DNA from: Methanobacteriota archaeon
GTDB lineage: Archaea > Thermoplasmatota > Thermoplasmata > SG8-5 > JAGLSY01
DNA length: 64,000 nucleotides
Direction: 5' to 3'
NCBI GenBank assembly: GCA_020697715.1
Contig: JAEHCO010000001.1
Span: 256,001 to 320,000, forward strand
Under the pieces are notes generated by a model that did no database searches, was not told the origin of the DNA, and saw nothing but the letters and a program-made list of their open reading frames with translations. A program made the translations under genes and the position numbers. This document shows positions 5,260 through 52,194 of the stretch, piece by piece. How positions within the stretch are numbered: the first letter of the stretch is position 1; each line of letters begins with the position of its first letter.

Positions 5260-5991
5260 ATGGACGGAGAACAAGACTCAGGGAATAAGGACAAGAGAAT
5301 ACCGACTTACGTCATCAATCTGGATGACATACTTCAAGGTGGCGTGCCCGTAGAGTACATCACTCTATTATGTGGCCACGCTGGAACCATGAAATCATCT
5401 GTTGGATACAGCATTATCTATAATGGTGCCAAGAACGATGGTCTCAAATCCATATATCTGACCCTGGAGCAGGGTAAGCAGAGCATTCTGGAACACATGG
5501 AAAGATTGGGAATGCCTTCAGCAGGATTGGACAATCTTGTAGTAGTTGACCTTTCGAAAGTAAGGAAGGACATCGTCATGGACAAGACAAAGCCACAGAA
5601 TGTGGACTGGCTTAAATCCATTATCGGCGTTCTGAAGAATTACAAAGAAAGGTTTGGATGCGAAGTTCTTGTATTGGACTCGCTCGCAGCGCTTTATGCA
5701 TTGGCTACCTTCAAGAACCCGCGTGGGGAACTGTTCCATTTCTTCGAGCAGATAAGACAGCTGGGAGTAACAACCTTCCTTATCTCCGAAATGCCAACAG
5801 ACAGAGAGGTCTTTGGTCTTTACGGAATTGAGGATTTCCTTTCAGATGGTATCATACACCTGAAAGTTGAGGAAACAGATCAGGGAGCTAACCTGTATCT
5901 GGGTGTTGTGAAGATGAGGAAGACCCACCACTCAAGGAAATATCACCCATTGATATTTGAGAGCGGTTCCTTCGAAGTCGTCCAGCAGTGA
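5260..5991 (+). CDS. KaiC/RAD55-family (RecA superfamily) ATPase
   Basis: RIPT..NLD.IL.GGVP, Walker A GHAGTMKSS, YLTLEQ, LVLDSL, DFLSDGIIHL, KMRKTHH. Confidence 0.9.
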   Translation: MDGEQDSGNKDKRIPTYVINLDDILQGGVPVEYITLLCGHAGTMKSSVGYSIIYNGAKNDGLKSIYLTLEQGKQSILEHMERLGMPSAGLDNLVVVDLSKVRKDIVMDKTKPQNVDWLKSIIGVLKNYKERFGCEVLVLDSLAALYALATFKNPRGELFHFFEQIRQLGVTTFLISEMPTDREVFGLYGIEDFLSDGIIHLKVEETDQGANLYLGVVKMRKTHHSRKYHPLIFESGSFEVVQQ

Positions 5992-6026
5992 TCCAGATCG
6001 GAGATATTTATCTCAGGTGATACCTA

Positions 6027-7385
6027 ATGGCAAAGAAAAAAGGCGGTAAGAAAAAGGGTAAGACCTCTTCAAAGAAGAAAGGCAGTCATCCATCTTCAAA
6101 GAAGAAGGGCAAATCCTCGAAGCCAAAGCAGCAGAAAAAGGCAGATAAGGAAGTTATTGTAGAGCAACCTGTGGAAGAGCCTGTAGAGGAAGTCATCGAA
6201 GAGATACAGATCGATGAAGATATCGCCGAGCCAGAAGAGGTTGTGGAAGATGTCGAAGAAGAGATACAGATCGATGAAGATATTGATGTATCTGAAGAAG
6301 GGGATATCGCTGACGAGATGAGCTTTGATGAAGATATCGCCGAGCCAGAAGAGGTTGAAGATGATTCCAAATTGAGCGATGCGGTTTCTGCCGTGATCTC
6401 CGATGATGGTGGCGAAAAGAAGGTGGAGAAGAAAAAGACCGCCACCGAGAAGAAAAGAGAGAAAATGATCATGCAATGGGTCGCAGAAGGCTATAATGTC
6501 GAAGTCCTGGAAAGCTTCCTGGAGAGCGGCCAGAAGAGAGGAGTTAAGAAATTATTCGATCAGTTTGACTCAAATGTCAAAAGGATCGAAGAGATCAAAG
6601 AAGAGCTGGGATCCGTCGAGAACATTGAAGCCCAGGTGGAAGAATTCAATGCCCTTCTATCAAATCCAAATGATCTTGATAATATTGAATTAGAATTCAC
6701 CAAGCTCAAGGCCTCTAAAAGAGTGGCTGAGATAAAGAAAGACCTTGATGGCATGGTCCTTGATTCCCTGAAAGATCGAGTTGCCGATCTCCACGAGATG
6801 CTTGAAGATCCAAATAACCTATCAAAGGTAGAAGATCTATTGGTAGACCTCAAAAAAGATTACAAAGAGGCCTATTTCGAAGATGGGGTGGAATCTCTCG
6901 TCACCACGACAGATGAGAGTGCGAAGCCAAAGGCTGTGGCAAAGAAACCCGCCCAGAACGGCGCGAACAAGATTCCAATGGAGGTCAAGGATATCTTCCT
7001 CCTTTACAAGGATGGAAAATTCATCTCCCACCACACTGCGAGAGTTGTCCCAAAGGAAGAGCAAGAGCAGTTATTTGCCGATCTCAAAACTGGAAGGAAC
7101 TATCTGAATTCCCCAAAATACAAGCCTCAGAAATTAAATGTCATTTCAGTGAATGGTAGGAAGATCCTCGTACAAGGCGGCCAATACACAGTTATAATAA
7201 TGGTCGTGACAGGAGATGTCAACCCATGGACCGAGAAGATCGTTAAAAAGGTTCAGGGATTACTTGAGAAAGAAGATGCTCAACCACTTATGAAGTGGAG
7301 CGGAGACGTTGCCTCCCTGAAAAGTGCAGGCAAATACATGACCGCCCTTCTTTATGCGTGCATGAAGCTATCGAACAAGAAATGA
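6027..7385 (+). CDS. Hypothetical protein: K-rich/acidic N-terminus, helical middle, C-terminal longin/roadblock-like domain
   Basis: Internal EIQIDEDIAEPEE repeats. C-terminal VKDIFLLYKDGKFISH...KILVQGG..VIIMVVTG...WSGD domain. Confidence 0.65.
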   Translation: MAKKKGGKKKGKTSSKKKGSHPSSKKKGKSSKPKQQKKADKEVIVEQPVEEPVEEVIEEIQIDEDIAEPEEVVEDVEEEIQIDEDIDVSEEGDIADEMSFDEDIAEPEEVEDDSKLSDAVSAVISDDGGEKKVEKKKTATEKKREKMIMQWVAEGYNVEVLESFLESGQKRGVKKLFDQFDSNVKRIEEIKEELGSVENIEAQVEEFNALLSNPNDLDNIELEFTKLKASKRVAEIKKDLDGMVLDSLKDRVADLHEMLEDPNNLSKVEDLLVDLKKDYKEAYFEDGVESLVTTTDESAKPKAVAKKPAQNGANKIPMEVKDIFLLYKDGKFISHHTARVVPKEEQEQLFADLKTGRNYLNSPKYKPQKLNVISVNGRKILVQGGQYTVIIMVVTGDVNPWTEKIVKKVQGLLEKEDAQPLMKWSGDVASLKSAGKYMTALLYACMKLSNKK

Positions 7386-7621
7386 TCGTGTCAAGCTGAT
7401 CGTCCTATAGAAAGTTCGTTTCAAACTATTGTATGATCATATATGCTTATAATTTCGATATATTTAGATACTATAAAGTTCATATATGAATTATATAAAG
7501 AGGGAGATATGCGCGCTGTGATCATTGTCCTCGGGTTTTTGGAACTATCGACAGGTATAGACCTTTCTCTCTCCAATGATAAGCGATAGGTTAGCAATAT
7601 CTATGCAAAAAAGGTGATAAG

Positions 7622-7891
7622 CTGGACAGCATTGGTTTCATATCCGATATAGAAAAAGAATTTGTGCCCATTGCACCCATCGTGGAATTTGCAATAAATA
7701 AGCAAATGCAGGAAGTGGGCGCCAACAAGGAGTGTATGAATCCAAAACAGGCGGAAGAGTTCATAGATAATATGGCAGATGCTCTGGAGATGTTCCTTGG
7801 AAAGGACCAGGCGAAAAGATCCCGAAAATTCATGATGAGCTCATTCAGAAAGCACGCGCCAGAGTATTTCAAGGAAAAAGCCTTGATATAA
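7622..7891 (+). CDS. Small helical hypothetical protein, possible CTG start
   Basis: Frame is open from CTG at 7622, just after the SD-like AAGGTGA. The ORF track starts it at GTG 7664. Confidence 0.55.
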   Translation: MDSIGFISDIEKEFVPIAPIVEFAINKQMQEVGANKECMNPKQAEEFIDNMADALEMFLGKDQAKRSRKFMMSSFRKHAPEYFKEKALI

Positions 7892-37593: not shown

Positions 37594-38463
37594 TCAAACC
37601 ATTTTCCTGAATTCCCTGGCAGTGAAAGCCAAGGATAGCGGGTTTTGAAAAGAACCCGCTAGGCATCCGCAATTGGAGCAATCCGTGCTTGGACCAAAAC
37701 ATCGCCTTGTATTCCAATTCACATCATAATGTAGTACATCGTCACCCCAGTAGCACCAGCCGCGATGATCGGGCTTCTCATACCAATCCAGCATATTGAT
37801 ACTGGGCAGGAATTGCTTGGGATGGATCTGCTTCACTCTCTTGAGCTCATCAACTATGAGCTTCCTTTCCTCGGCTTTGACATGCATAGGTATCTTGATC
37901 TCTGTTCCGGAAGCACAGATATTGCAGACCACGCCTCTGAAACCATGCTCTTTAGATAGCTGGACGACGTCGTCCAATTCCTTGTAATTATCCATGGTTA
38001 TCGTCATATTGATGGCCACGCGCTTGTCCCCGGAGTAATTCTTCAAGATCTTGTCAAAACCACCTGCTCCCCTGATCGAATCATTGGTCTCCCGCATGCC
38101 GTCCAATGATACGTAAAGTAGATGGTCGAACTCTTTCGGAATGAAGATCGTTCCATTTGTGATCACATACACGAATGGGAAAGTGTCATGAGCCAGCATG
38201 AGCACGTCATTCCTCATAGCTGGCTCGCCACCTACAAGCAGGACGAATCTAATGCCCTGTTTGTAAAGATCTACGAACCGCTTTTTCCAAATATTGATGA
38301 ATATATCCTCTTTCTCAAAATCATCCTTGCCATGAAAATGATAGCAATGCCCACATCGGAGATTGCAATTATCGGTGACGTCGATCTCGGCAAAGTACTT
38401 GACACCTCGAATTTTCCTTCTCAATTCGAGGTAAGCCAGATACGGAATATCAGAGTTTTTCAT
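37594..38463 (-). CDS. Radical SAM protein with C-terminal Cys-rich (SPASM/twitch-like) domain
   Basis: CNLRCGHC, GGEP, ITNGT, VSLDG...NDSIRG, C-terminal C..RRCFG..DCSNCGC. Confidence 0.9.
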   Translation of the reverse strand: MKNSDIPYLAYLELRRKIRGVKYFAEIDVTDNCNLRCGHCYHFHGKDDFEKEDIFINIWKKRFVDLYKQGIRFVLLVGGEPAMRNDVLMLAHDTFPFVYVITNGTIFIPKEFDHLLYVSLDGMRETNDSIRGAGGFDKILKNYSGDKRVAINMTITMDNYKELDDVVQLSKEHGFRGVVCNICASGTEIKIPMHVKAEERKLIVDELKRVKQIHPKQFLPSINMLDWYEKPDHRGWCYWGDDVLHYDVNWNTRRCFGPSTDCSNCGCLAGSFQNPLSLAFTAREFRKMV

Positions 38464-38849
38464 TGTTTCAGATAGTCACACACATAGAGCGTGGGCTTCT
38501 TAACATTAAGCACCAGATCCTTGCCCGCAGGTATCAGCAATGTGTCGTATTGCTTTGGCACGATATCACCCTTGCCAACACCCCAGGCTATCTCCCCATG
38601 CAAAAAGTGCATGGTCTCCTGATTGCCTCCGACATTGAAGACGAACTCGCCAACTGGCAGGTATCCGAATGTCGAAGGAGAAGCTTTGCCCTGCCCCTCG
38701 ATAACCGTGCTCATGACGCCATTATCGTACTCGTTTATCTTTCCGGGCTGCGTGCCCCGGAAATAATCCGCAATTCCTGGGAATGACTCGGCCAGTAACT
38801 GGAAATCTATCTGCTTGCTAAGGAACATCTCTTTAACTTTTGAATCCAT
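38460..38849 (-). CDS. ppnP: PpnP-like pyrimidine/purine nucleoside phosphorylase (cupin)
   Basis: NEYDNGVMS...STFGYLPVGEFVF...ETMHFLHG...IPAG..L.LNV.KPTLYVCDY aligns with the PpnP pattern NEYF.G.VKS...GEYTF...E.M....G...Y.C.Y. Confidence 0.7.
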   Translation of the reverse strand: MDSKVKEMFLSKQIDFQLLAESFPGIADYFRGTQPGKINEYDNGVMSTVIEGQGKASPSTFGYLPVGEFVFNVGGNQETMHFLHGEIAWGVGKGDIVPKQYDTLLIPAGKDLVLNVKKPTLYVCDYLKQ

Positions 38850-38850
38850 A

Positions 38851-38900
38851 TTTTCACCTATACAAGGGTGAATGTCGATGTGTTTGATATGCTTTTTGGG
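38851..38900 (-). promoter_or_regulatory. Shared leader/promoter module, copy 1
   Basis: About 40 of 51 aligned columns identical to 39696-39746; ends in SD AGGTGA. Confidence 0.7.
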
Positions 38901-38909
38901 CTAATTCAT

Positions 38910-39695
38910 TTATTGAATTATATTTAGAATTTTCTCACCCTCGATATATGCTCTTTTGAGAAATTCACCATGGTCTTTGATATATGAATTCATAATCATC
39001 AGCTCCAGCATGACTGGGTTGCTGTATTTCGAGTGCTTGAGCAGTCTGCATATCTCGTCAAAATCCACAAATCCCTCGCCCGGGATCGCATGATCGATGA
39101 AGGGGCGTATTCGATCCGATAAATGCACGGAAATCACCCTGTTGCCAAACTCCTCTAGCAGGTTGAAATCCCTTGGCCCATCCACTTGATCATGGGATGA
39201 ATCATAACAAAAGCCAAAGACCTCCGGGTCTAGCTGAGGCAGACCTCTTCTCAAGACCTCGGTCGCATTATCTGGATGCATGTTCTCGACAGCTATTTTG
39301 ATATTATTTTGTTCAAGTGTGGGTCGGAACCTTGCACAAGTATCCAATAACGACTTCACTTTCTGCTCTATTTGAGATTCGCATATCTCAAATCCAGTCA
39401 CCGGGTGCACGACAATTATCGGAACATCCAGTTCCTTCGCGGCTTCGATAATCCCATTCAATATTTTATCACAATTTGGATTGTCAGTACCGCAGCCGTG
39501 GATGGTGTCAATTGAAAGCCCATATTCTTTCAATTGCTCTTTGATCAACTTTCGATTTTCCTTATCCAGGATATTCGAATGCTCATACCTCCCACTAATA
39601 GAGAAGTGGTTGAAGCCAGCGGATGAGATCATTTCCAATTGTTCATCAAAAGGAATATTGTAATCAAAGCAGGTGGCTATTGAGATTTGCTTCAT
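38910..39695 (-). CDS. Sugar phosphate isomerase/epimerase (xylose isomerase-like TIM barrel)
   Basis: IVVHP, IAVEN, FCYDSSH, VHLSD...DH.IPGEG.VDF, MLEL. Confidence 0.88.
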   Translation of the reverse strand: MKQISIATCFDYNIPFDEQLEMISSAGFNHFSISGRYEHSNILDKENRKLIKEQLKEYGLSIDTIHGCGTDNPNCDKILNGIIEAAKELDVPIIVVHPVTGFEICESQIEQKVKSLLDTCARFRPTLEQNNIKIAVENMHPDNATEVLRRGLPQLDPEVFGFCYDSSHDQVDGPRDFNLLEEFGNRVISVHLSDRIRPFIDHAIPGEGFVDFDEICRLLKHSKYSNPVMLELMIMNSYIKDHGEFLKRAYIEGEKILNIIQ

Positions 39696-39746
39696 TTTTC
39701 ACCTCATATGGAAGTGGATGGTGATGTGTTAGATATGTTTTTGGGG
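39696..39746 (-). promoter_or_regulatory. Shared leader/promoter module, copy 2
   Basis: Homologous to 38851-38900. Confidence 0.7.
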
Positions 39747-39770
39747 TTTTTGTAATAATCCAAAAACTCC

Positions 39771-40655
39771 TTATTTAAAGGTCAATTGAAAGGAAAAGGG
39801 TCCACCTCTATCATCTTTAGTACACATTGAATTAATGCGCTTATATCCAATTTCAGTTAATTCTTCTTCGAGTTCTAATGGATTTATTGGACGTATCTCT
39901 AATGCATAGGATTCCCCTTCTATAATGAAGTCATAATAAGGGTTAAGAGATGAATGTGCTTGGTCATTATCAGTTATTATTAAGATTCCGTTATCTGCCA
40001 ATAAGTTTTTTAAGAGTGAAAAATCAGGGTTATGTGGCATAGAAGAAAGAACCCATGAAATAATTATAACATCGAATTTTTTTCCTTTTAATCGATTATG
40101 AATATTGTCTATATCCTCTACGATAATCTCCGTTCTCAACGGTGCTTCATCCATGATTTCTTGAAATTTCTTAATCATGCTTGTGGATTTATCAACATAC
40201 GTCCATGTTATATTCTCTTTATTGAAAAAATGATTCGTTATTAATTTTCCAGTACCTCCACCCAAATCCAAAATATTGTAGTTTCTATCTTCATTCAAGT
40301 GATTTTCAATTTCTTCAATGACACGCCGGTGCGATTCTAAAAGTTTCTTTGAATTTCGCTCATCATACATTTTAGCTATGGTATTATAAAAATCGATTGC
40401 GTTTTTAATATTGAAATTCTTAATATTGGGCAGGGTTTTATCCACATTTTTACTATCAATAATAACAATCCCTATTATACAAACAATCAGAATTATAGCA
40501 CATACAATCAAACCATACAGTACCTGATCTGGAGGCATCACTACAAGTGATGCAACAAATGCCCCCTCTGCAATTAACGCAATCAATGCTAAAAGTTTCG
40601 TTTTACTATCAATTGCATCAAGAATGCTACTTCGTGATTCACTCATCATATCCAC
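39771..40655 (-). CDS. Class I SAM-dependent methyltransferase with N-terminal 2-TM anchor
   Basis: Two TM helices, then FYNTIAKMYD, ILDLGGGTG, YVDKS.SM, FDVIIISWVL, L..NG.LIITD. Confidence 0.88.
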   Translation of the reverse strand: MDMMSESRSSILDAIDSKTKLLALIALIAEGAFVASLVVMPPDQVLYGLIVCAIILIVCIIGIVIIDSKNVDKTLPNIKNFNIKNAIDFYNTIAKMYDERNSKKLLESHRRVIEEIENHLNEDRNYNILDLGGGTGKLITNHFFNKENITWTYVDKSTSMIKKFQEIMDEAPLRTEIIVEDIDNIHNRLKGKKFDVIIISWVLSSMPHNPDFSLLKNLLADNGILIITDNDQAHSSLNPYYDFIIEGESYALEIRPINPLELEEELTEIGYKRINSMCTKDDRGGPFSFQLTFK

Positions 40656-40733
40656 ATTTTTATTATTCTCTCGATATCATCACATGCTCTTTCATTTATT
40701 ATTACTTTTTGGTTCTTGTATAATAAATAATCA

Positions 40734-41225
40734 TTATGAAATGTCATAGTGTTTTTTCAATAAGAATAACAATTCGGGATGAAATTTATCTCCACTTTTA
40801 ATCATCTGTCGAATAGTATCTATGTTAAAAAATTTCACATAATTAACTTCATTATTATTAATTGATAATTCGCCATTATACACCCCTGAAAAAGTAGATA
40901 GGAATCTCTTAATACCCCTTTCATCGGTATAATAATCCTTGTGTGAAAAAACAATTTCGATCTCTATTCCAAGTTCTTCTTTGATTTCTCGGAGAGCTGC
41001 CATCTCATATGTTTCTCCATAACGTACATGTCCCCCGGCAGAAGTGCTCCAATGTAGAGGACAAAATGATTTTTTATCACTTCGTAATTGCAACAACATT
41101 TCTTCTTTTTCATTTAGAATAAAAATATGGACAATTCTATGGATGGGTAAAATAGTATATACTTTGTCATAAGTCATTTTTCCAATTTCTTCATCATTTT
41201 CATTGACTACTGCTAACCATTCCAT
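40734..41225 (-). CDS. NUDIX hydrolase (IDI/YfcD-like)
   Basis: HRIVHIFILN...LLQLRS..K...P..W..SAGGHV..GETYE.AALREIKEELGI Nudix box. Confidence 0.93.
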   Translation of the reverse strand: MEWLAVVNENDEEIGKMTYDKVYTILPIHRIVHIFILNEKEEMLLQLRSDKKSFCPLHWSTSAGGHVRYGETYEMAALREIKEELGIEIEIVFSHKDYYTDERGIKRFLSTFSGVYNGELSINNNEVNYVKFFNIDTIRQMIKSGDKFHPELLFLLKKHYDIS

Positions 41226-41226
41226 T

Positions 41227-42186
41227 CTATTCCGCCATTTCTATATTTTTTGGAAAGAATTTGCATTCACACAATTTTTTATTACACGATACACAAGCAA
41301 ATTCACCATCATATTTATAACAATCGTTAAGCACATCCTCTAAAGACAACAATTTAAATTTATTTGTGTCTATTATTCCTCTAATTTTGTTCAAAATAGA
41401 GCAATACCAAGAAAATATATCTGCCATTTCAACTATCATATCCATTTTTGCCTTAATTAATCGTTTTGTAATCATATCTGGATCTAATGATGTATAGTCG
41501 ATTTTGTCATCTTTCTTAATGAATTTTTCATACGCATCTACTATCCCCTCAATTGTCGACAATCTATTAATGAAATCCATATCAATTTCGTCGATTTCTT
41601 CAATAACTCCTGCCAACTGGCTTAGCTCACGTATCGCCTTTGCTTCTTCCCCTACTTCTTCAAGAAAATGGAAACCAATGTTTTCTACTGAGAGCATATA
41701 TGTTGTTTGGCCATATATTTTATCAAAAACAGATTGCCAGTTTTGAATAGTATATCTCTCAAATTTTATGTGTTCATCATTCTCACATGTTAGTTTTGCA
41801 TTAAGCAATCTCCTGTATCCGGCAGCTTTGTCTTTTCCACCATCCATTATCTTAGGTTCACATCTGCATGGAGATATATGGCAATGCCCACAAACTACTG
41901 GATATTTAAAAGATATAATGTCAGATAATGACTCTGAAAAGCCGAATACCGAATCTTCGAGTGAATTACATTTGTTGATATAAGTACACATCCAACAGAA
42001 AGAATGTGCAGCCTCATCTAATAATTCAGTAAAATCATATTTCCTGATACTTTCGCCAATAGCACTACAATGGGCAGACAATGCAATCCAGATTTGCTCA
42101 ATATTTTTTTCTTTATCATTTTCCCCATATATTGCTTTAAATTTCTCCGTCCAGTCCGTTATAGATATATCTTCAACCATATACAT
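41227..42186 (-). CDS. Tandem MazG-like NTP pyrophosphohydrolase with Cys-rich zinc knuckles
   Basis: First domain degenerate and ends KYP.VCGHC...PC.C. Second domain has FLEEVGEE..AIR...EMADIFSW and ends C..C...CEC. Confidence 0.8.
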   Translation of the reverse strand: MYMVEDISITDWTEKFKAIYGENDKEKNIEQIWIALSAHCSAIGESIRKYDFTELLDEAAHSFCWMCTYINKCNSLEDSVFGFSESLSDIISFKYPVVCGHCHISPCRCEPKIMDGGKDKAAGYRRLLNAKLTCENDEHIKFERYTIQNWQSVFDKIYGQTTYMLSVENIGFHFLEEVGEEAKAIRELSQLAGVIEEIDEIDMDFINRLSTIEGIVDAYEKFIKKDDKIDYTSLDPDMITKRLIKAKMDMIVEMADIFSWYCSILNKIRGIIDTNKFKLLSLEDVLNDCYKYDGEFACVSCNKKLCECKFFPKNIEMAE

Positions 42187-42191
42187 CCTTC

Positions 42192-43157
42192 CTATTCTCG
42201 ATCAATTATTTGTTCTCCATAATATCTAGCAGAGTGATCTGATGAACTTACATATAAAAAATATTTTATTTCTGAATTGATATTCCCTATCAAGATTTTC
42301 TGGCCAGGCTTATCTCCTTGTGTATAAATTTTCCCATCGCCAATAAGTAAAAATACGCTATTGTGCCTTTTATCTATTTTAGTAAAACATTTAATATTGT
42401 ATTTTTTGCACTTCTTCTTTAGCTTTCTTAATATATCAATGTAATCAGCTTCCTTCAAAAGTTCTTCCTTTTTTGCCAGGTGAGATGGTATGAACCTTTG
42501 AATATACCATTTTTTAATACTTTTTTGTTTTAGATATTCTGGAATCCTAAGCATGGATTCATCATTGCGTTTATGGAGAACACTCTGAATGGCGAGATTA
42601 ATACCTTTGGATTTGAACCAATCAATGTTTTCTAGCTTTTTAAAATAAAGTTCCCTATCTGCTTCCTTCTTCTTTCCAAGGGTTCTAAAAATAGTTTCAG
42701 TTTGAGGTCTTACTGCATCTAATGAAATGCGAACCAAAATATTCTTTTGCTTAATGATTTTTAATAATTCTTTATCAGGCCTAATCGTTCCATTTGTATC
42801 TATGATTATTCCTTTATCGATACGCTTCAACAAAGAAATTAAATCATCTCTTTTTTTAGGCAGTAATGGCTCCCCTCCAGTTATAACCACCACGAAAAAT
42901 GGTGATTCATTAATCCAATTAATTAATTTTTCAGAAATAACGAGATCCCCTACTTTATGCATTTCAAAATCTTTAGCTACACAATGCTTACATTTCATAT
43001 TGCAATCAAAGGTTAAGTCGATGTTGAGGAGCAAAGGATTGCTTACGTATGGAGTCTGCCTATTTTTTTCAAATTCTTTAGTAGGTTTTATGTTAAAAGT
43101 ATGATTAACAGTATTATATTCCACTTTACCCCAATCTTCTTTTCTTGATATTATCAT
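42192..43157 (-). CDS. Radical SAM protein, viperin-like C-terminal half
   Basis: NIDLTFDCNMKCKHC, ITGGEPLL, DTNGT, RISLD, IQSVLHKRN, KKWYIQRFIP, NSVFLL..DG. No SPASM cysteines. Confidence 0.8.
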   Translation of the reverse strand: MIISRKEDWGKVEYNTVNHTFNIKPTKEFEKNRQTPYVSNPLLLNIDLTFDCNMKCKHCVAKDFEMHKVGDLVISEKLINWINESPFFVVVITGGEPLLPKKRDDLISLLKRIDKGIIIDTNGTIRPDKELLKIIKQKNILVRISLDAVRPQTETIFRTLGKKKEADRELYFKKLENIDWFKSKGINLAIQSVLHKRNDESMLRIPEYLKQKSIKKWYIQRFIPSHLAKKEELLKEADYIDILRKLKKKCKKYNIKCFTKIDKRHNSVFLLIGDGKIYTQGDKPGQKILIGNINSEIKYFLYVSSSDHSARYYGEQIIDRE

Positions 43158-44323
43158 TTGAATGCCACCATAATTTTTTCAGGGTGTTTTTTCCTAATTA
43201 CAAAATGCTTTTTTGATACATTTCTCAGCCCTAGATGGTGCCTTTTTTCATCAAATACAATCTTTGTTTGGAATCCATAACATTTCAGCAAGTCTGATAA
43301 AGCAGTATCGATCTCTATAATTTCACCCCTATGCATATTGTCTTGCACGACAACATACAACTTGCCATTTTTAGATAAACTCTGGATTATATTTTCAAAG
43401 GTCCTAAATAAAGTATCAAAATAACGAGTGTAATATTTTGAGTAATACATTACATCTTTTTCCTTCTTTTGTTCAATTGTTGTGATTAAATTAGATAGAT
43501 AGGGTGATTTTGAAAATAGATATTTTTTTCCATGAATAAAACTATCATAAGCTCTGACTGTATTAGTTCCAATTAAATTGGATGGCTTAACTGGAAATCC
43601 AACATTAGAAAGAAAGAAGTTCTCTGGGCCATATAATCGATGATAATCCAACCTATTGGGGTATGGAGGGGAAGTGACAATTAGATCAACAAGTTTAGGT
43701 GTTTTTGCTGTTATTGCATTTTTTATATCAATTACACAACTGCCTTCCACTGTAGGTTCATTGTTTTCATATGATTCTTTATAATACTTTTCAAAACGTT
43801 GAATAGTATCATCCACAATATCATCTAGAGATTTATACGAAGAAATGCCTCCTGCTTTTACCCAAGTTCTATTTTTTGATTTCTCAAAAGATGAATAATT
43901 TCGTAGAGAAACAAGTAATAGAGCCTTAAGAAGAGCCTTCTCTATTTGCTCATATTTTTCAGTAGTCTGCCAAGCTTTGCATAGCCCTTTTAATGTATCT
44001 TTATCATACCAGTCATCTGAAATTATTGAACTTTGATTTTTAACAGATGATAAACATTTTTTTAATTCCTCATAAAACCACTCAGTTCCATTTTTTTTGT
44101 AAGTGTTATATGCATCAATTTTTTTTGCACTATTTACAAAGAAATGAATTGGTAAAACATCATATAGATAAGCATTATGGCCATTTTTTTCGATAAACGG
44201 TATCAAAGGAGCCGTGCCTGCCATAGGGTCTAAAATTGTTGCAGGTGCACTCAATATTTCATCTTTAATATACTCCTGAACACTATTACGATAGGTTGCA
44301 TATTCAGACGAAAGTAATTTCAT
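43154..44323 (-). CDS. Amino (N4-C/N6-A type) DNA methyltransferase-like protein, alpha motif order
   Basis: Motif I ILDPMAGT near the N-terminus, motif IV LIVTSPPYPNRLDY, and L..NGKLYVVV.D. Confidence 0.85.
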   Translation of the reverse strand: MKLLSSEYATYRNSVQEYIKDEILSAPATILDPMAGTAPLIPFIEKNGHNAYLYDVLPIHFFVNSAKKIDAYNTYKKNGTEWFYEELKKCLSSVKNQSSIISDDWYDKDTLKGLCKAWQTTEKYEQIEKALLKALLLVSLRNYSSFEKSKNRTWVKAGGISSYKSLDDIVDDTIQRFEKYYKESYENNEPTVEGSCVIDIKNAITAKTPKLVDLIVTSPPYPNRLDYHRLYGPENFFLSNVGFPVKPSNLIGTNTVRAYDSFIHGKKYLFSKSPYLSNLITTIEQKKEKDVMYYSKYYTRYFDTLFRTFENIIQSLSKNGKLYVVVQDNMHRGEIIEIDTALSDLLKCYGFQTKIVFDEKRHHLGLRNVSKKHFVIRKKHPEKIMVAFK

Positions 44324-44428
44324 TAAAAAGGGCAGGGCTTGTTTGTACTTAAATATTAGCTATTTTAGCCTTGTATAGATGTAAATGCCCATCTCTCAAA
44401 AATGTTTATTCACCTCTTTAATTAAAGG

Positions 44429-44453
44429 TGCCAGGCCCTATTCAGGCCTGGCA
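44429..44453 (-). terminator. Hairpin after the AOR gene, at the island boundary
   Basis: TGCCAGGCC-N7-GGCCTGGCA immediately after the AOR stop. Confidence 0.55.
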
Positions 44454-44462
44454 TTCGAACGC

Positions 44463-46817
44463 TCACCACTTTTCCCAGTACTTCGCATCATCTGTCGGTG
44501 GCTTCTCATCTCCCACGTAGTCACCGCCCCAAGTGTTCAGGCCAGCTGCTTCATCTTCATCGATCTTCTGCTGAAGCATTTCCAGCATCTTGGTCTCGTC
44601 AGCGAATCCAAGCGAGATCATCTTCTGAACTGTCGGCACTCCATTGTGTGTCCATCCTCTTCGGAAGTAAACCGCATCCGCCAGCTTCTGATACCTGTTC
44701 TGGCGGTAATGGTACATCATCTTCATCCTGTCCTCGATGCTCATGGCTTCCAGGCTGTCTGCTGGAACTCCAATATCTTCCACCATCTGCTTGTCGTACA
44801 TTTCCTGGCGTGAGACGTATTCGAGGCGGGTTACGGGTCCCATGGATCTGTATGGTATCCAGTCGTCCGCACGTCTTCCGCGACCCATCCAGACATTCAT
44901 AGATCTTTGCCAGTTGTACGCTCTCTCGCTCTGGAGGATCAGATCTTCCTTGGTCACATTCCAGCCAGTTATCGCGTTCTGGATATCGACGTAGTTCTGC
45001 ACGTGGCCTGGAACCTTTGCCGGCTCCCCGGTTTCGGCATTATCCGCTGGCTCGACATCGTTCCATGGTAGTTTGCATAATCCGTTCAGTCCGAACCACG
45101 TTCTCCACATCGGGAAGTAGTGAAGCGCTTCAGCCTTATCAGCGAAGGTCGGGATCTGATTGTTCACCATGTCCATGAATATGAGCCAGGCCTCGTCGTG
45201 CTGCGGTCCTTTCAATGTCAAACCGTAGCCGCCCTGCATGGCCAAGCTTTCTTTGGTGACGTATTCTGAATATTCCAGACCCTTGGATTCCATTCCACAG
45301 TCCTCGATGAGTTGCTGATCTCCCCAGTTCTTGATCTTGAGCCAGTCCTTCACACGGCGTGCGCCCTTACCCGCTATCTTGACGAACTCGTCATCATCGC
45401 CAGCGGCCATCCTGTGGAGTAATTCCATCATCGCATCCGCGTTTCCAAAGCATAGTTCCAGACCACCGCATCTTTCCTTGTTCAGGATTCCATATTCGTA
45501 CATCTCCATGTAGAAAGCGATGGCAGTTCCTGTGGATATTGTGTCCAATCCGTATGTGTCACAGTAGAAGTTGAACTCCAGCACCCATAGTGGATCCCAG
45601 ATGCTCATATTGGACGAACAACCCAGTGTCTCGTATTCGGGCCCATCGACAGTCACTTTGTGACCCTTGTAAGGTCCGGTCATGACCGTGTAGCCGTCAG
45701 CGGCTTTCGCGCATGCCATCGTGCATCCGTACCAGCAACCGTCGGGTATCACCTGGGTCCACAATTTGTAGAAATGTGGCGAATATATCTTCGGTGCTTT
45801 CGGGTGCTGGCCAAATCGATAGTTCTCGGTTGGTAAAAGGTCATAGGCGTCCATGATCTCCACCAGGTGGCCGGTCCCAACGGTCCTCATATTGCACTGG
45901 TCCTTGTCCAGATCTCTCATTTCCTTGTGATAGTTCGCTCCTATTTCAGCAATTTTATCTAGATCGATAGCATCGTTGGTCGTGGCATCGAACTCGTCGA
46001 TCCTGGAAACAACGGCCTTGATCTTCTTGTGCCTCAGAACTGTTCCCAATCCACCGCGACCATGCTGCTTCAGCCTGGCTACCTTTCTTCTAATATCATA
46101 AAATGAGATGTTAAGACATCCCCAGTAAGAGTTCTCCGCTCCAGTTCCGGCGGATACGACAGCCACGCCCTGTTTGCCCTTCTCGGAATCCTCAAAAGCA
46201 TACAGGTGGGTCAATTGCTCAGCCAGCACATGGGAATTCGTTTCCTCGCCAGGCGCGGTCTCGATACGAACTTTTCCTTCGACACCGTCTATGAGGACGA
46301 TCACATCTTCATCGGCCTTTCCATGTATCTGGACAGCATCAAAGCCAGCAAATTTCATGTATGGCGCGAAGTAACCGCCAGCATTGGAGTCACATATGAT
46401 ATCGGTGGAAGGAGAAACAGATAGTGCCAGTGATTTTCCAAAGCCCGGATACTGTGTGGAACCGCACATCGGGCCCGCTGTCAGTACCAGTCCATTCTCA
46501 TCACTGTCCCAGCGTGTTGAAGGGTTGATGGAATCCCAGAGGAGCTTGAGACCGAATCCACGTCCTCCCGTGAATTTCTTCTTCATGTCCTCGGTTATTG
46601 GTATTTCCCTGATCTCCTTCTTTGTCAGGTCCACATACAGAGTGCGGCCAGCATAGCCCTTGACTATCGGCTTCTTCTCATAAGCGTATTCGGCCAGCAC
46701 GACATGGCTGGCCCTCAATGCGGCCAGATCCCACTTGTGTTCCGTGTTCCCTGTCTGGAAGCCAGTTGCCCGGTTTCCAATCAATTTTGCTTCTGCTTTA
46801 CAATTCTCATCACTCAT
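44463..46817 (-). CDS. Tungsten-containing aldehyde:ferredoxin oxidoreductase family protein
   Basis: GYAGRTLYVDL, GGRGFG, DSNAGG.F, GRGGLG, CWYGC..C, GPEYET, CD.YGLDTIS.G, Y.RRGW..NGVPT. Confidence 0.95.
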   Translation of the reverse strand: MSDENCKAEAKLIGNRATGFQTGNTEHKWDLAALRASHVVLAEYAYEKKPIVKGYAGRTLYVDLTKKEIREIPITEDMKKKFTGGRGFGLKLLWDSINPSTRWDSDENGLVLTAGPMCGSTQYPGFGKSLALSVSPSTDIICDSNAGGYFAPYMKFAGFDAVQIHGKADEDVIVLIDGVEGKVRIETAPGEETNSHVLAEQLTHLYAFEDSEKGKQGVAVVSAGTGAENSYWGCLNISFYDIRRKVARLKQHGRGGLGTVLRHKKIKAVVSRIDEFDATTNDAIDLDKIAEIGANYHKEMRDLDKDQCNMRTVGTGHLVEIMDAYDLLPTENYRFGQHPKAPKIYSPHFYKLWTQVIPDGCWYGCTMACAKAADGYTVMTGPYKGHKVTVDGPEYETLGCSSNMSIWDPLWVLEFNFYCDTYGLDTISTGTAIAFYMEMYEYGILNKERCGGLELCFGNADAMMELLHRMAAGDDDEFVKIAGKGARRVKDWLKIKNWGDQQLIEDCGMESKGLEYSEYVTKESLAMQGGYGLTLKGPQHDEAWLIFMDMVNNQIPTFADKAEALHYFPMWRTWFGLNGLCKLPWNDVEPADNAETGEPAKVPGHVQNYVDIQNAITGWNVTKEDLILQSERAYNWQRSMNVWMGRGRRADDWIPYRSMGPVTRLEYVSRQEMYDKQMVEDIGVPADSLEAMSIEDRMKMMYHYRQNRYQKLADAVYFRRGWTHNGVPTVQKMISLGFADETKMLEMLQQKIDEDEAAGLNTWGGDYVGDEKPPTDDAKYWEKW

Positions 46818-49377: not shown

Positions 49378-52194
49378 ATGGGTATGAGAAAGACGATTAT
49401 AATTCTGATAAGCATATTGATGTTCACGAGCATGATGGTAGTTCCGGGAAACACTGGCGATGTGGAAGCTGGTGTTCCAGATACAACTACACTCGCGCTC
49501 ACGCCTCATGCACCGATTCGAATAAATTCGAATGCGGATTTCCCAGGGATAGCGACAGCCGGGGATGGAAGTATTGGCGATCCGTGGATCATTGAGAACT
49601 GGGAGATCAATGGCACAGGGAATGGCACTTGCATTTTTGTCGGAAATGTAACTGAACATTTCGAGATCAGAGATTGTGACCTATCAAACTCAGATGGTTC
49701 AAGTATCTGGCCTCATGTTGGAAATTATGGCTTGATCCTGAATAACACATATGGAGGGAATATCACCAATTGTTCATTTAATTTCAATGAAGCTGGTGGA
49801 ATTCATATCACAGACAGCCAGTATCTGAATTTATCATATAATATCTTTCATGATTGTCCTATAGGAATTGAAATGGTCAGCTCATCAAATCTGATGATCA
49901 AACATAACGATATTCAAAATTGTACAAGTACTGGGATAAATAGCAGAAATTATTCGAATAATAATATCATTGAAAACAACACATTTATGAACAATGATAA
50001 TCGGGCCATTGTGATCAAGGGCTCTTTCAATCTCATAAACAATAATTCATTCTTTGGAAATTACCGTGATATCGATATATTGTATGGAGATAATAATCAT
50101 ATATCAAATAATTCGTTTAATAATTGTACAGATATCAGCATTATCACTATCTTGAGCTGGTTCAATCAAATTTACAATAATACCTTCACCTACAACAATA
50201 TAGACATAAGCATTGAATGGGATGGCGGCGGTCAGAAAATATATCACAATATGTTCATAGACAGTGCATTACCTCCTTATGATTCAGGATCTACTGATTC
50301 TGAATGGGATAATGGATATCCCTCAGGAGGTAATTATTGGTCAAATCATACTGGCTATGATAATTATTCAGGCCCTGATCAAGACATTCCTGGAAGCGAT
50401 GGGATAATCGATACAAATTATACTGGTTTCAGCGGTCTGTTCAATGCTGTCGATAACTATCCATTTAAGAAGCCATTTGATTATGTGGATTCTCTGGCTC
50501 CTAATTCATCAGTGGTCTCTATAATACCATACCTGCAAACAGATCCAGTTGATATCACAGCCACTGCTGTTGATGATGATGCTGGCATTGCCAATGTCAC
50601 CCTTTTCTATCGCTATTCATCGGACAATGTCACCTTCGGCAACTGGACATTCTTCGGACTTGATGCTGTATACCCATACGAATGGAACTTCGACTTCCCT
50701 GCTGGTGAAGGCTTCTATCAATTCTATTCCATCGCTATCGACAACCTCAATAACACGGAAGATGAGCCAGTAACAGCAGATGCCCACTGTGTGTATGATA
50801 TCAATCCGCCTATATCCAGTGTCGATGATCCAGCCCCATACTGGCACAATACCCCGATCAATATTTCTATAAATGCAAGTGATGCAGGTATAGGGGTCGC
50901 CAACGTCACCCTCTTCTACAACTATTCCCCGGACAATGCCACATCCGTCTTCGGAACCGAGTTCGGAACTGATCTTGCAGCGCCCTGGAACTTCACCTTC
51001 GACTTCCCAGCTGGCGAAGGTTATTATGAATTTTTCTCCATAGCCACGGACATATTCAACAACACCGAGAGCCTGCCATTATCCGGGTACGCTTCTTGCG
51101 GCTACGATGCCACCACCCCGCAGTCTGAAGTACTGCAGCCGGACTTCTGGCAAGACAATCACACCGTGTACTTGGAATGGGAGACGAACGAGACTTTGAG
51201 TGGCTTCGGCCCTCTTTCACTTGGCCAGTATCCTTCCCATGATAATGTCGACCTCTGTATGCGCTACAGCCTTGACAATCAAACATGGGGTATCTGGAAA
51301 CTGGTCACGGAAAATATGGTCAATTCCTCCACACACAATATCACGGTATTGGAAGATGGATATTATCAATTCTACACCATCGCGCAGGACATTGCTGGGA
51401 ATCTGGAAGCCCCGCCTATGGATTCAGATTCATCTGTGACTTATGACATATATATCGGCATTGACACGGTGTCACCAGTGGCAGTCGCTGCCGATGAACA
51501 GAACTACACGATATCTCAATTCAGTACGGTGATGTTCGACGCCTCTGCTTCGACAGACAATATGGGCATACACAGCTACACATGGAATTTCACGCATATC
51601 GTCAATGGCACTTTGCAGGAAGTGGTGATCCACGATCCGGCCTTCAATTTCACCTTCGGATACTATGGGCAATACCCGATCACATTGACCGTGATAGACC
51701 AGGCTGGCAATATGGACCAGGACATCATGAACTTCAATATCACGGATGATGAAGCTCCGATCGCCAATGCGGGCCCGGATCAACACAAGGATCAGTTGGC
51801 CTGGGTGACCTTCAGAGGTATCGATTCATCGGATAATGTCGGCATAGTGGATTACACATGGACCTTCTCATACAATGGCACGATCATCACTCTGGAGGGG
51901 GCACAGCCCAAGTTCAGGTTCATGTATCATGGTAATTACAATGTCACGATGACCGTCACGGACCTTGCGGGAAATACAGCATCGGACAATGTCATGATAT
52001 ACATTGCGGAGGACATAAGCTCGACTGGTAGCGGTTATAACTGGATAATCGTGATATTCGTACTGGTACTGTTGTTATGCGTGATCATGATAATGGCCTT
52101 TTATTTCAAAAAGACCAGTTCCGTGGGTTCTGAAGAGCGTGATGATGAATATGATGAGTATGGGGAAGATGATAGGTACGATGGAAGAAGATAA
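49378..52194 (+). CDS. Cell-surface glycoprotein: NosD-like beta-helix, Ig-like repeats, PKD domains, C-terminal TM
   Basis: Signal peptide, HAPIRIN..., Asn-rich beta-helix, GGNYWS, repeated G.Y.F.SIA.D..NN.E, F.AS.STDN.GI..YTW.F (PKD), TM anchor, many N-x-S/T sites. Confidence 0.88.
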   Translation: MGMRKTIIILISILMFTSMMVVPGNTGDVEAGVPDTTTLALTPHAPIRINSNADFPGIATAGDGSIGDPWIIENWEINGTGNGTCIFVGNVTEHFEIRDCDLSNSDGSSIWPHVGNYGLILNNTYGGNITNCSFNFNEAGGIHITDSQYLNLSYNIFHDCPIGIEMVSSSNLMIKHNDIQNCTSTGINSRNYSNNNIIENNTFMNNDNRAIVIKGSFNLINNNSFFGNYRDIDILYGDNNHISNNSFNNCTDISIITILSWFNQIYNNTFTYNNIDISIEWDGGGQKIYHNMFIDSALPPYDSGSTDSEWDNGYPSGGNYWSNHTGYDNYSGPDQDIPGSDGIIDTNYTGFSGLFNAVDNYPFKKPFDYVDSLAPNSSVVSIIPYLQTDPVDITATAVDDDAGIANVTLFYRYSSDNVTFGNWTFFGLDAVYPYEWNFDFPAGEGFYQFYSIAIDNLNNTEDEPVTADAHCVYDINPPISSVDDPAPYWHNTPINISINASDAGIGVANVTLFYNYSPDNATSVFGTEFGTDLAAPWNFTFDFPAGEGYYEFFSIATDIFNNTESLPLSGYASCGYDATTPQSEVLQPDFWQDNHTVYLEWETNETLSGFGPLSLGQYPSHDNVDLCMRYSLDNQTWGIWKLVTENMVNSSTHNITVLEDGYYQFYTIAQDIAGNLEAPPMDSDSSVTYDIYIGIDTVSPVAVAADEQNYTISQFSTVMFDASASTDNMGIHSYTWNFTHIVNGTLQEVVIHDPAFNFTFGYYGQYPITLTVIDQAGNMDQDIMNFNITDDEAPIANAGPDQHKDQLAWVTFRGIDSSDNVGIVDYTWTFSYNGTIITLEGAQPKFRFMYHGNYNVTMTVTDLAGNTASDNVMIYIAEDISSTGSGYNWIIVIFVLVLLLCVIMIMAFYFKKTSSVGSEERDDEYDEYGEDDRYDGRR

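Follow-up and report, generated by a model that had tools for sequence, protein, structure and literature searches.

A recurrent gene cassette of archaea and bacteria that joins a radical SAM enzyme of predicted viperin fold to a methyltransferase and a MazG-like pyrophosphatase

What does an AT-rich block of five co-oriented genes do in the genome of an archaeon of the Thermoplasmatota, and do these genes belong together at all? The block, hereafter the island, occupies positions 39771-44323 of the 64,000-nucleotide (nt) stretch that was analyzed (the window; contig JAEHCO010000001.1, assembly GCA_020697715.1). A preliminary description, made from the letters alone, had proposed that all five genes form a single, horizontally acquired module of nucleotide modification, matching no named system. 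We find that the conserved unit is smaller: three genes, M-R-Z, which encode an amino-methyltransferase (M), a radical S-adenosylmethionine (SAM) enzyme (R), and a MazG-like pyrophosphatase (Z), and which are usually accompanied by a dCMP deaminase gene (D). We tentatively read this cassette as a cytosine-nucleotide modification system that is probably used in virus-host conflict. The genes of the island, each an open reading frame (ORF), are as follows:

43154..44323, minus strand: M, an SPPY amino-methyltransferase (389 amino acids [aa], motif IVTSPPYPNRLDY)
42192..43157, minus strand: R, a radical SAM enzyme (321 aa, CNMKCKHC)
41227..42186, minus strand: Z, a two-lobed MazG/dimeric-dUTPase-like pyrophosphatase (319 aa)
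40734..41225, minus strand: a NUDIX hydrolase, YfcD/IDI-like (163 aa)
39771..40655, minus strand: a membrane-anchored class-I SAM methyltransferase (the TM-methylase, gene 5; 294 aa)

M and R overlap by 4 nt (43154-43157), and gaps of 5 nt, 1 nt, and 78 nt follow between R and Z, between Z and the NUDIX gene, and between the NUDIX gene and the TM-methylase. Other loci were fetched through the alignment of Z with 37 word-indexed relatives: species genomes gave six (in Chloroflexia, Eubacteriales, Pirellulales, Thermotogae, Bathyarchaeota, and one further bacterium), and among metagenome contigs, loci were fetched for 80 of 83 matches. Profiles built from the loci's own ORFs were run over six-frame translations, and the counts given here are for the 69 loci with a close Z; because every locus was found through Z, they are conditional on it. 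R lies upstream of Z in 47 of 50 loci, M stands just upstream of R in 33 of 35 (the exceptions are L059 and L072), and D is found in 46 of 56. A MutT-like NUDIX gene (N) is divergent from M in 14 of 26 loci, with 12 loci lacking it. The M stop and R start codons overlap as ATGA in 17 of 35 loci, as they do in the window. In L085, R and M are convergent to a Z fragment, and in L081 a distant R-like gene comes after Z. The window holds M, R, Z, and a weak match to the module-linked NUDIX profile (33 bits) but no D in the profile scan; a D homologue is present ~122 kilobases (kb) from the island on the same contig.

Pairwise distances among M, R, and Z are correlated (r = 0.87 to 0.93 across 24 loci; none of 999 permutations reached such values); at the level of sequence distances, this co-variation shows joint inheritance and says nothing of interaction. 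The cassette is rare, and it occurs in archaea and in several bacterial phyla. The expectation that the gene families would keep company in other genomes is thereby borne out for M, R, and Z. The idea of a single module survives in the recurrent, linked M-R-Z core and fails for the island as a whole, since two of its five genes are not conserved members and D, the usual fourth member, is missing here. The TM-methylase matches Pfam class-I methyltransferase models at 33 to 43 bits (Methyltransf_31, 42.8), has hydrophobic segments at residues 19-42 and 36-73 (Kyte-Doolittle, 19-residue window), and is AT-rich, as are its four neighbors; it stands beside the module in none of 86 other loci (tblastn), with one weak match in L031, far from the module, and is local cargo, not a conserved partner. 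The NUDIX protein of the window (Pfam NUDIX, 68.5 bits; NCBIfam YfcD, 80 bits against a cut-off of 152) matches the module-linked NUDIX profile at the 33 bits already given, and its gene is downstream and co-directional, whereas the MutT-like NUDIX gene of other loci is upstream of M and divergent; it is at best a functional stand-in.

Could the genes be chance neighbors, or the remnant of a prophage? We consider this very improbable. The TM-methylase and a TIM-barrel gene next to the island (see below), which are not conserved partners of the module, are what such an account would lead one to expect, but the linkage counts, the co-divergence, and the ATGA coupling contradict it, and relatives of Z were found in none of 2.9 million viral contigs, in none of 50,697 phage records, and in no plasmids. 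One locus has a second radical SAM gene of its own: in L021 (Eubacteriales), positions 5907-7688 encode a 593-aa protein directly upstream of M, adjoining a type I restriction subunit.

R is akin in fold to the viperins. Viperins and prokaryotic viperins (pVips) are radical SAM enzymes that synthesize 3′-deoxy-3′,4′-didehydronucleoside triphosphates (ddhNTPs), and viperins are, to our knowledge, the only known radical SAM enzymes of antiviral nucleotide chemistry. R carries C52-x3-C56-x2-C59 and a GGEP motif (C52, C56, C59, G94, G95, and E96 are invariant) and matches the Pfam Radical_SAM model at 57 bits. Its predicted structure (predicted local distance difference test [pLDDT], 92.3) has the viperin fold, a partial (beta-alpha)6 barrel closed by a C-terminal extension, and the top ten solved matches in a structure search with this model were all viperins, enzymes that bind NTPs. 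R also resembles viperins in its single CxxxCxxC [4Fe-4S] site and GGE SAM motif without an auxiliary cluster; we assign no second cluster because the sole further near-invariant cysteine is C257. Alignment of the R family with ten local viperins (hhalign) gave a probability of 98.4% at 19% identity, and the two have in common an Asn before the cluster, GGEP, NG, SxD, and probably one Arg. Beyond the conserved C-terminal extension, R has a conserved 37-residue N-terminal beta unit that sets it apart from viperins, as does its coupling to a methylase and a MazG-like gene.

R has the viperin fold yet is no viperin, either by the curated cut-off or by its substrate-cradle residues. R scores 59.8 bits against the curated viperin model (NCBIfam NF038283, cut-off 180 bits), whereas 401 genomes of the phylum yielded 14 viperins above it, at 225 to 299 bits; the source genome has no match at E ≤ 1e-30. 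A PDB sequence-profile search with R left viperin, anSME, and MoaA inseparable, all at 31 to 37 bits. The viperins of the phylum are invariant at K83, R152, K176, N178, R201, K203, Y252, and R297 and have the consensus SVNWH; the basic residues and the His presumably are the positions that hold the CTP triphosphate in mouse viperin. According to hhalign, R has V or M at K83, approximately R158 at R152, A or V at K176, and Q191 at N178; the position of R201 is variable, K203 and Y252 correspond to Y218 and F, R297 is unaligned, and the His of SVNWH (H41) is not kept. With K83, K176, R201, K203, and H41 gone, the basic cradle is absent from R and, because these viperin-invariant residues are absent, neither an NTP substrate nor ddh chemistry is implied for it. 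The R family, of at least 120 members, has an invariant set of its own (Q191, Q220, K260, D262, R264, N266, H308, R311, and Y312), with R221, H265, and K287 near-invariant.

That R is an ordinary prokaryotic viperin, making ddhCTP, ddhUTP, or ddhGTP chain terminators with some help from its neighbors, would agree with its match to the PADLOC pVip model (75 bits, E = 1.4e-21), with the nearest solved folds, and with the hhalign probability. Set against the sub-cut-off score, the low identity, the loss of the invariant basic residues and His, and the equal scores of other radical SAM models on sequence, this account strikes us as highly unlikely. The viperin likeness noted in the preliminary description thus stands for the fold, and ddhNTP synthesis is not to be assumed from it. 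The M-R-Z gene set is not mentioned in the available portions of two viperin studies (10.1101/2023.09.13.557418 and PMC13592299).

M has the alpha-class order of motifs, with SAM motif I (DPMAGTAP) at residues 32-39 followed by the catalytic TSPPY at 217-221. Across 20 sequences, D32, P33, G36, T217, S218, P219, and N223 are invariant, as are W118, R141, W154, G158, and G159 in a conserved central region; some members carry SPQY, SPWY, SPSY, or SPPF. The protein scores 20.6 bits against Pfam N6_N4_Mtase, below the cut-off of 26.7, and 68 bits against PADLOC MTase_II, and a PDB sequence-profile search returned a weak match to a putative methylase only. Among 5.8 billion proteins, the M family numbers 145 relatives, whose source names are nearly all "hypothetical protein" (one fragment is a "DNA modification methylase"), and PF01555 is carried by one relative among the 120 matches listed; the family is specific to the M-R-Z module.

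M and R are predicted to form a complex. The interface score (ipSAE) was 0.64 (0.64, 0.66, and 0.61 in individual runs) against 0.00 for the best control, with a contact agreement of 95% or more and a partner pLDDT of 84 or more. In a benchmark, the mark was attained by 58 of 80 solved complexes and by 2 of 110 mismatched pairs, counts that hold only roughly for M-R because our own alignments were used as input. The face of M predicted to bind R is its conserved central region; the predicted interface comprises residues 98-103 and 147-163 of M and residues 149-153, 168-175, and 199-211 of R.

Z, the third conserved protein, was thought from the outset to be a tandem MazG-like enzyme, and its predicted model (pLDDT, 91.0; predicted template modeling score, 0.90) and fold search agree: two MazG-like lobes in tandem, with the all-alpha NTP-pyrophosphatase fold and its four-helix bundle, as assigned from a wide VIA search. 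The EExxE...ExxD metal site is intact in the C-terminal lobe, with E174, E175, E178, E251, and D254 invariant; in the degenerate N-terminal lobe, E43 alone survives, and each lobe ends in four invariant cysteines (a Cys4 knuckle). Z shares its helical bundle and EExxE...ExxD with the all-alpha pyrophosphohydrolases (MazG, dimeric dUTPase, HisE, and DCTPP1), and its two-lobe layout is similar to that of dimeric dUTPases and two-domain MazG, but it differs from these enzymes in its dead lobe, its Cys4 knuckles, its linkage to D, and the lack of a Pfam MazG match. There was no Pfam family at E ≤ 0.01, no PADLOC or NCBIfam match, and, for the model, no Foldseek match at E ≤ 0.001. The superfamily comprises 729 representatives at E ≤ 0.001 among 1.84 billion, and one distant member, P0404, matches PF03819 at 28.3 bits. 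Distant Z domains are fused to TIR (P0404), cytidylate kinase (P0401), and PilZ (P0418), in one record each. Downstream genes of 180 aa that a BLAST single-linkage cluster had put forward as a "short Z" turned out to be HAE...PCxxC deaminases, which were grouped with Z because fused or overlapping ORFs linked them.

The usual partners of the core are also nucleotide enzymes. D matches Pfam dCMP_cyt_deam_1 at 51 to 72 bits, with ComEB as its best NCBIfam model, and the module-linked N is MutT/NudG-like. D resembles the anti-phage dCTP deaminase in matching the deaminase domain of PADLOC dCTPase (64 to 79 bits) and, in part, the NCBIfam model; it differs in being a stand-alone protein of ~180 aa without the kinase-like domain, in scoring far below the cut-offs, and in working beside a pyrophosphatase (and it is missing from the window). 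Phages combine a dCTPase with a dCMP deaminase for DNA hypermodification (T4 gp56/cd), which is the same pair of enzyme classes acting on dCTP and dCMP; unlike the T4 set, the module has no relatives in the viral contigs and phage records and no linked dNMP kinase, hydroxymethylase, or polymerase. In two loci (L037:4146-5507 and L064:3870-5336), the D of the module is fused to a SorC-type sugar-phosphate-binding domain (PF04198).

A distant clade of Z (21 to 29% identity) keeps some of this company. D directly precedes Z in 7 of 18 loci. An HhH-GPD glycosylase occurs in 5 of 18, four of which also have a C5 DNA methylase; for these two genes, cluster membership was set by BLAST and one representative was scanned per cluster. 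In L089, L092, L096, L098, and L099, D and the distant Z are found with a MutY/Mig-like HhH-GPD glycosylase and C5 DNA methylase, a gene set that may serve damage control for 5-methylcytosine; the glycosylase matches the PADLOC "type II nicking endonuclease" model at 108 bits. Elsewhere (L088, L101, and L102), short Z-like genes adjoin a dCTP-deaminase-like gene, L101 and L102 have a serine recombinase in addition, and L102 contains a PurA/PurZ-like gene (363 bits on archaeal PurA and 231 on PurZ).

How might these enzymes work together? Our tentative reading builds on the gene linkage, the co-divergence, the folds, the intact catalytic motifs, and the predicted M-R contact. The cassette would act on free cytosine nucleotides: Z would take (d)CTP, modified or not, down to the monophosphate; a cytosine nucleotide would undergo a radical reaction and N-methylation in the M-R complex; and D and N would convert or dispose of cytosine nucleotides, either protecting the host pool or draining a natural competitor. 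Its likely use would be conflict with viruses. All substrates, the step order, and the antiviral role are what we infer. We favor this reading because four of the five conserved families are enzymes of free nucleotides and because cytosine comes up repeatedly, in the deaminase, in the fusion to a kinase, and in the SPPY motif, and to this extent the nucleotide-modification theme proposed earlier is supported. The sequences further suggest that R may act on a monophosphate supplied by Z, since the triphosphate cradle is lost, Z is steadily present, and an R-Z fusion is on record (P0285, whose R part is 42% identical to that of the window). A more specific version strikes us as rather doubtful: M and R would make a novel cytosine nucleotide, radical-modified in its sugar or base, N4-methylated and thereby deamination-proof, that would poison viral polymerases, while Z and D drain normal (d)CTP, its natural competitor, to (d)UMP; in such a scheme, the dead lobe of Z might be a product sensor.

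Several observations weigh against the cytosine-nucleotide reading, beginning with the missing cradle of R. The fusions, of R to Z, of Z to D (P0288), and of a distant Z to cytidylate kinase, are single records on one or two contigs and could be frameshift artifacts. The remaining points concern DNA and context. In language-model comparisons, the look-alikes of M are clusters named N4-cytosine (N4C) DNA methylases (score, 0.95 to 0.97), and its best plasmid match is a methylase gene on Deinococcus radiodurans plasmid CP1, which is weak (26.8% identity over 140 residues). The DNA-methylase likeness of M, together with the basic character of M and R (median pI, 9.2 and 9.1), would fit a nucleic-acid substrate, and the D and Z genes beside a C5 DNA methylase and glycosylase in the distant clade fit pool sanitation after DNA methylation at least as well.

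These points raise the alternative that M, alone or bound to R, writes N4-methylcytosine or a further-modified cytosine on host DNA, with Z, D, and N cleaning the precursor pool: modified (d)CTP or (d)CMP from DNA turnover would be hydrolyzed to the monophosphate and then deaminated. What makes this alternative a serious one is the DNA-methylase likeness of M, the basic character of both M and R, and the link of D and Z with DNA methylation in the distant clade. M.DraR1, a proven N4C enzyme, is reported to have the same alpha-class motif order with SPPY (PMC6712171), and human DCTPP1, an all-alpha enzyme, hydrolyzes modified dCTPs (PMC13139568). Like the alpha-class N4C DNA methylases, M has its SAM motif at the N terminus and its SPPY toward the C terminus, with a central region between them. 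Unlike them, it falls below the Pfam cut-off, lacks an accompanying nuclease, and has a radical SAM enzyme as its predicted binding partner, and its central region, expected to be variable if it were a target-recognition domain, is strongly conserved and coincides with the predicted R-binding face. The 145 members of the M family are not spread among restriction-modification (R-M) systems, a closed-barrel enzyme of viperin fold would be left without a role, and we know of no precedent in prokaryotes for pool cleaning by three genes. On balance, we judge a DNA mark to be unlikely, if worth serious attention. Should the cassette mark DNA, R would be the first radical SAM partner of an N4C-type methylase, and Z, D, and N the first prokaryotic enzymes dedicated to cleaning the nucleotide pool in connection with DNA methylation.

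Returning to a cytosine-nucleotide system used in conflict, what do the surroundings of the cassette say? In a survey that scanned 73 of 110 neighbor ORFs (ORFs under 90 aa and some others were left out), R-M, BREX, OLD, or Gabija-like genes lay within 6 kb in 6 of the 16 loci examined, and integrases or a transposase were near the module in L043, L051, L053, L058, and L063. The other 10 of the 16 loci have no known defense gene nearby, no defense or mobility gene was seen around the island in the window, and related archaeal loci (L031, L041, and L044) hold the module among housekeeping genes; these, too, count against the proposed use. The defense role, though unproven, receives modest support.

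Such stable positions among housekeeping genes, and the pathway-like enzyme set, would also suit a metabolic function: the product would be a modified nucleoside or nucleotide, either a natural product or the precursor of a cofactor, and not a means of defense, and D and Z would act in the pathway or confer self-resistance. Resistance of the cytidine-deaminase type to cytosine nucleoside antibiotics exists. We nevertheless consider this explanation improbable, given that no transporter, glycosyltransferase, or other tailoring gene is conserved with the module, that its spread over two domains is very patchy, and that R-M, BREX, or OLD genes are neighbors in 6 of 16 loci.

The cytosine-nucleotide cassette matches no system already named. 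PADLOC-DB 2.0 gave no complete system, with single-protein matches only (MTase_II, pVip, PDC-S07, and mad2) and none for Z, and a full-text literature search found no description of the M-R-Z gene set, in agreement with what had been proposed at the outset. We tentatively file the cassette as an apparently undescribed form of nucleotide-based conflict system built on the viperin fold. R represents a viperin-fold sister family with a different substrate pocket, which in both archaea and bacteria is tied to a methylase of its own and a MazG-like enzyme. If the product of the cassette is a new nucleotide analogue, the chemistry of immunity would be broader than viperins suggest and a new scaffold for antiviral nucleotides would be at hand; if, in particular, M and R make the deamination-proof nucleotide described above, the cassette would open a new branch of nucleotide-based immunity alongside the viperins, one shared by archaea and bacteria.

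How, finally, did the island come to lie where it does? Its five genes have a guanine-plus-cytosine (GC) content of ~31%, against 44 to 52% in the flanks; 500-nt bins from 39500 to 44499 range from 0.296 to 0.354, and the adjoining bins stand at 0.468 (below) and 0.520 (above). The AOR stop codon is at 44463, and a hairpin (44453-44429) directly follows it. ORFs, spacing, GC bins, and hairpin thus agree with the AT-rich run of five co-oriented genes after the AOR terminator that had been described. The features that delimit the site are these:

44429..44453, minus strand: terminator-like hairpin after AOR, the last sequence in common with congener G003 before the island
38896..44424, no strand: variable slot between AOR and a Ppnp-like gene, holding the TIM-barrel gene and the five AT-rich genes
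38910-39695: TIM-barrel gene, xylose-isomerase-like, of normal GC (AP_endonuc_2, 77 bits)

One congener (G002) has an empty site, with ~15 nt separating the AOR stop codon from the Ppnp-like start, and in another (G003) an unrelated 251-aa ORF occupies the slot, homology with the window stopping at ~44424 and restarting at ~38896. The source genome has six genes there, the five AT-rich ones and the TIM-barrel gene; because the flanking genes of G002 are ~15 nt apart, positions ~38896-44424 of the window are an insertion relative to that genome. Genome comparison found as counterparts of R solely non-orthologous radical SAM genes (25 to 29% identity). The GC shift and the empty site support horizontal acquisition of the AT-rich stretch, as the preliminary description had supposed. 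The TIM-barrel gene was not found beside the module in other loci. No sequencing runs, RNA among them, were listed for the island. A near-palindromic motif of 23 nt (19 of 23 positions complementary) precedes the Ppnp-like gene (38850-38872) and M (44364-44386) as an inverted repeat. Its two arms were considered as the ends of an element, a reading that we rejected because G003 conserves the sequence around the left arm, immediately before the Ppnp-like gene.

The rest of the window is archaeal housekeeping DNA (an archaeal ThrRS editing domain, ribosomal protein S3Ae, and CGI-121), and McrA was not found in the source genome (93.8% complete). At 37594-38849, a 289-aa radical SAM gene (NirJ-like, 64 bits, far below the cut-off) overlaps the 129-aa Ppnp-like gene; the two come directly after AOR in the congeners and may belong with it. 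A second shift from AT-poor to AT-rich sequence (GC of 0.35 to 0.38 at 49500-50499) falls where a beta-helix/PKD surface protein of 938 aa (49378-52194) begins.

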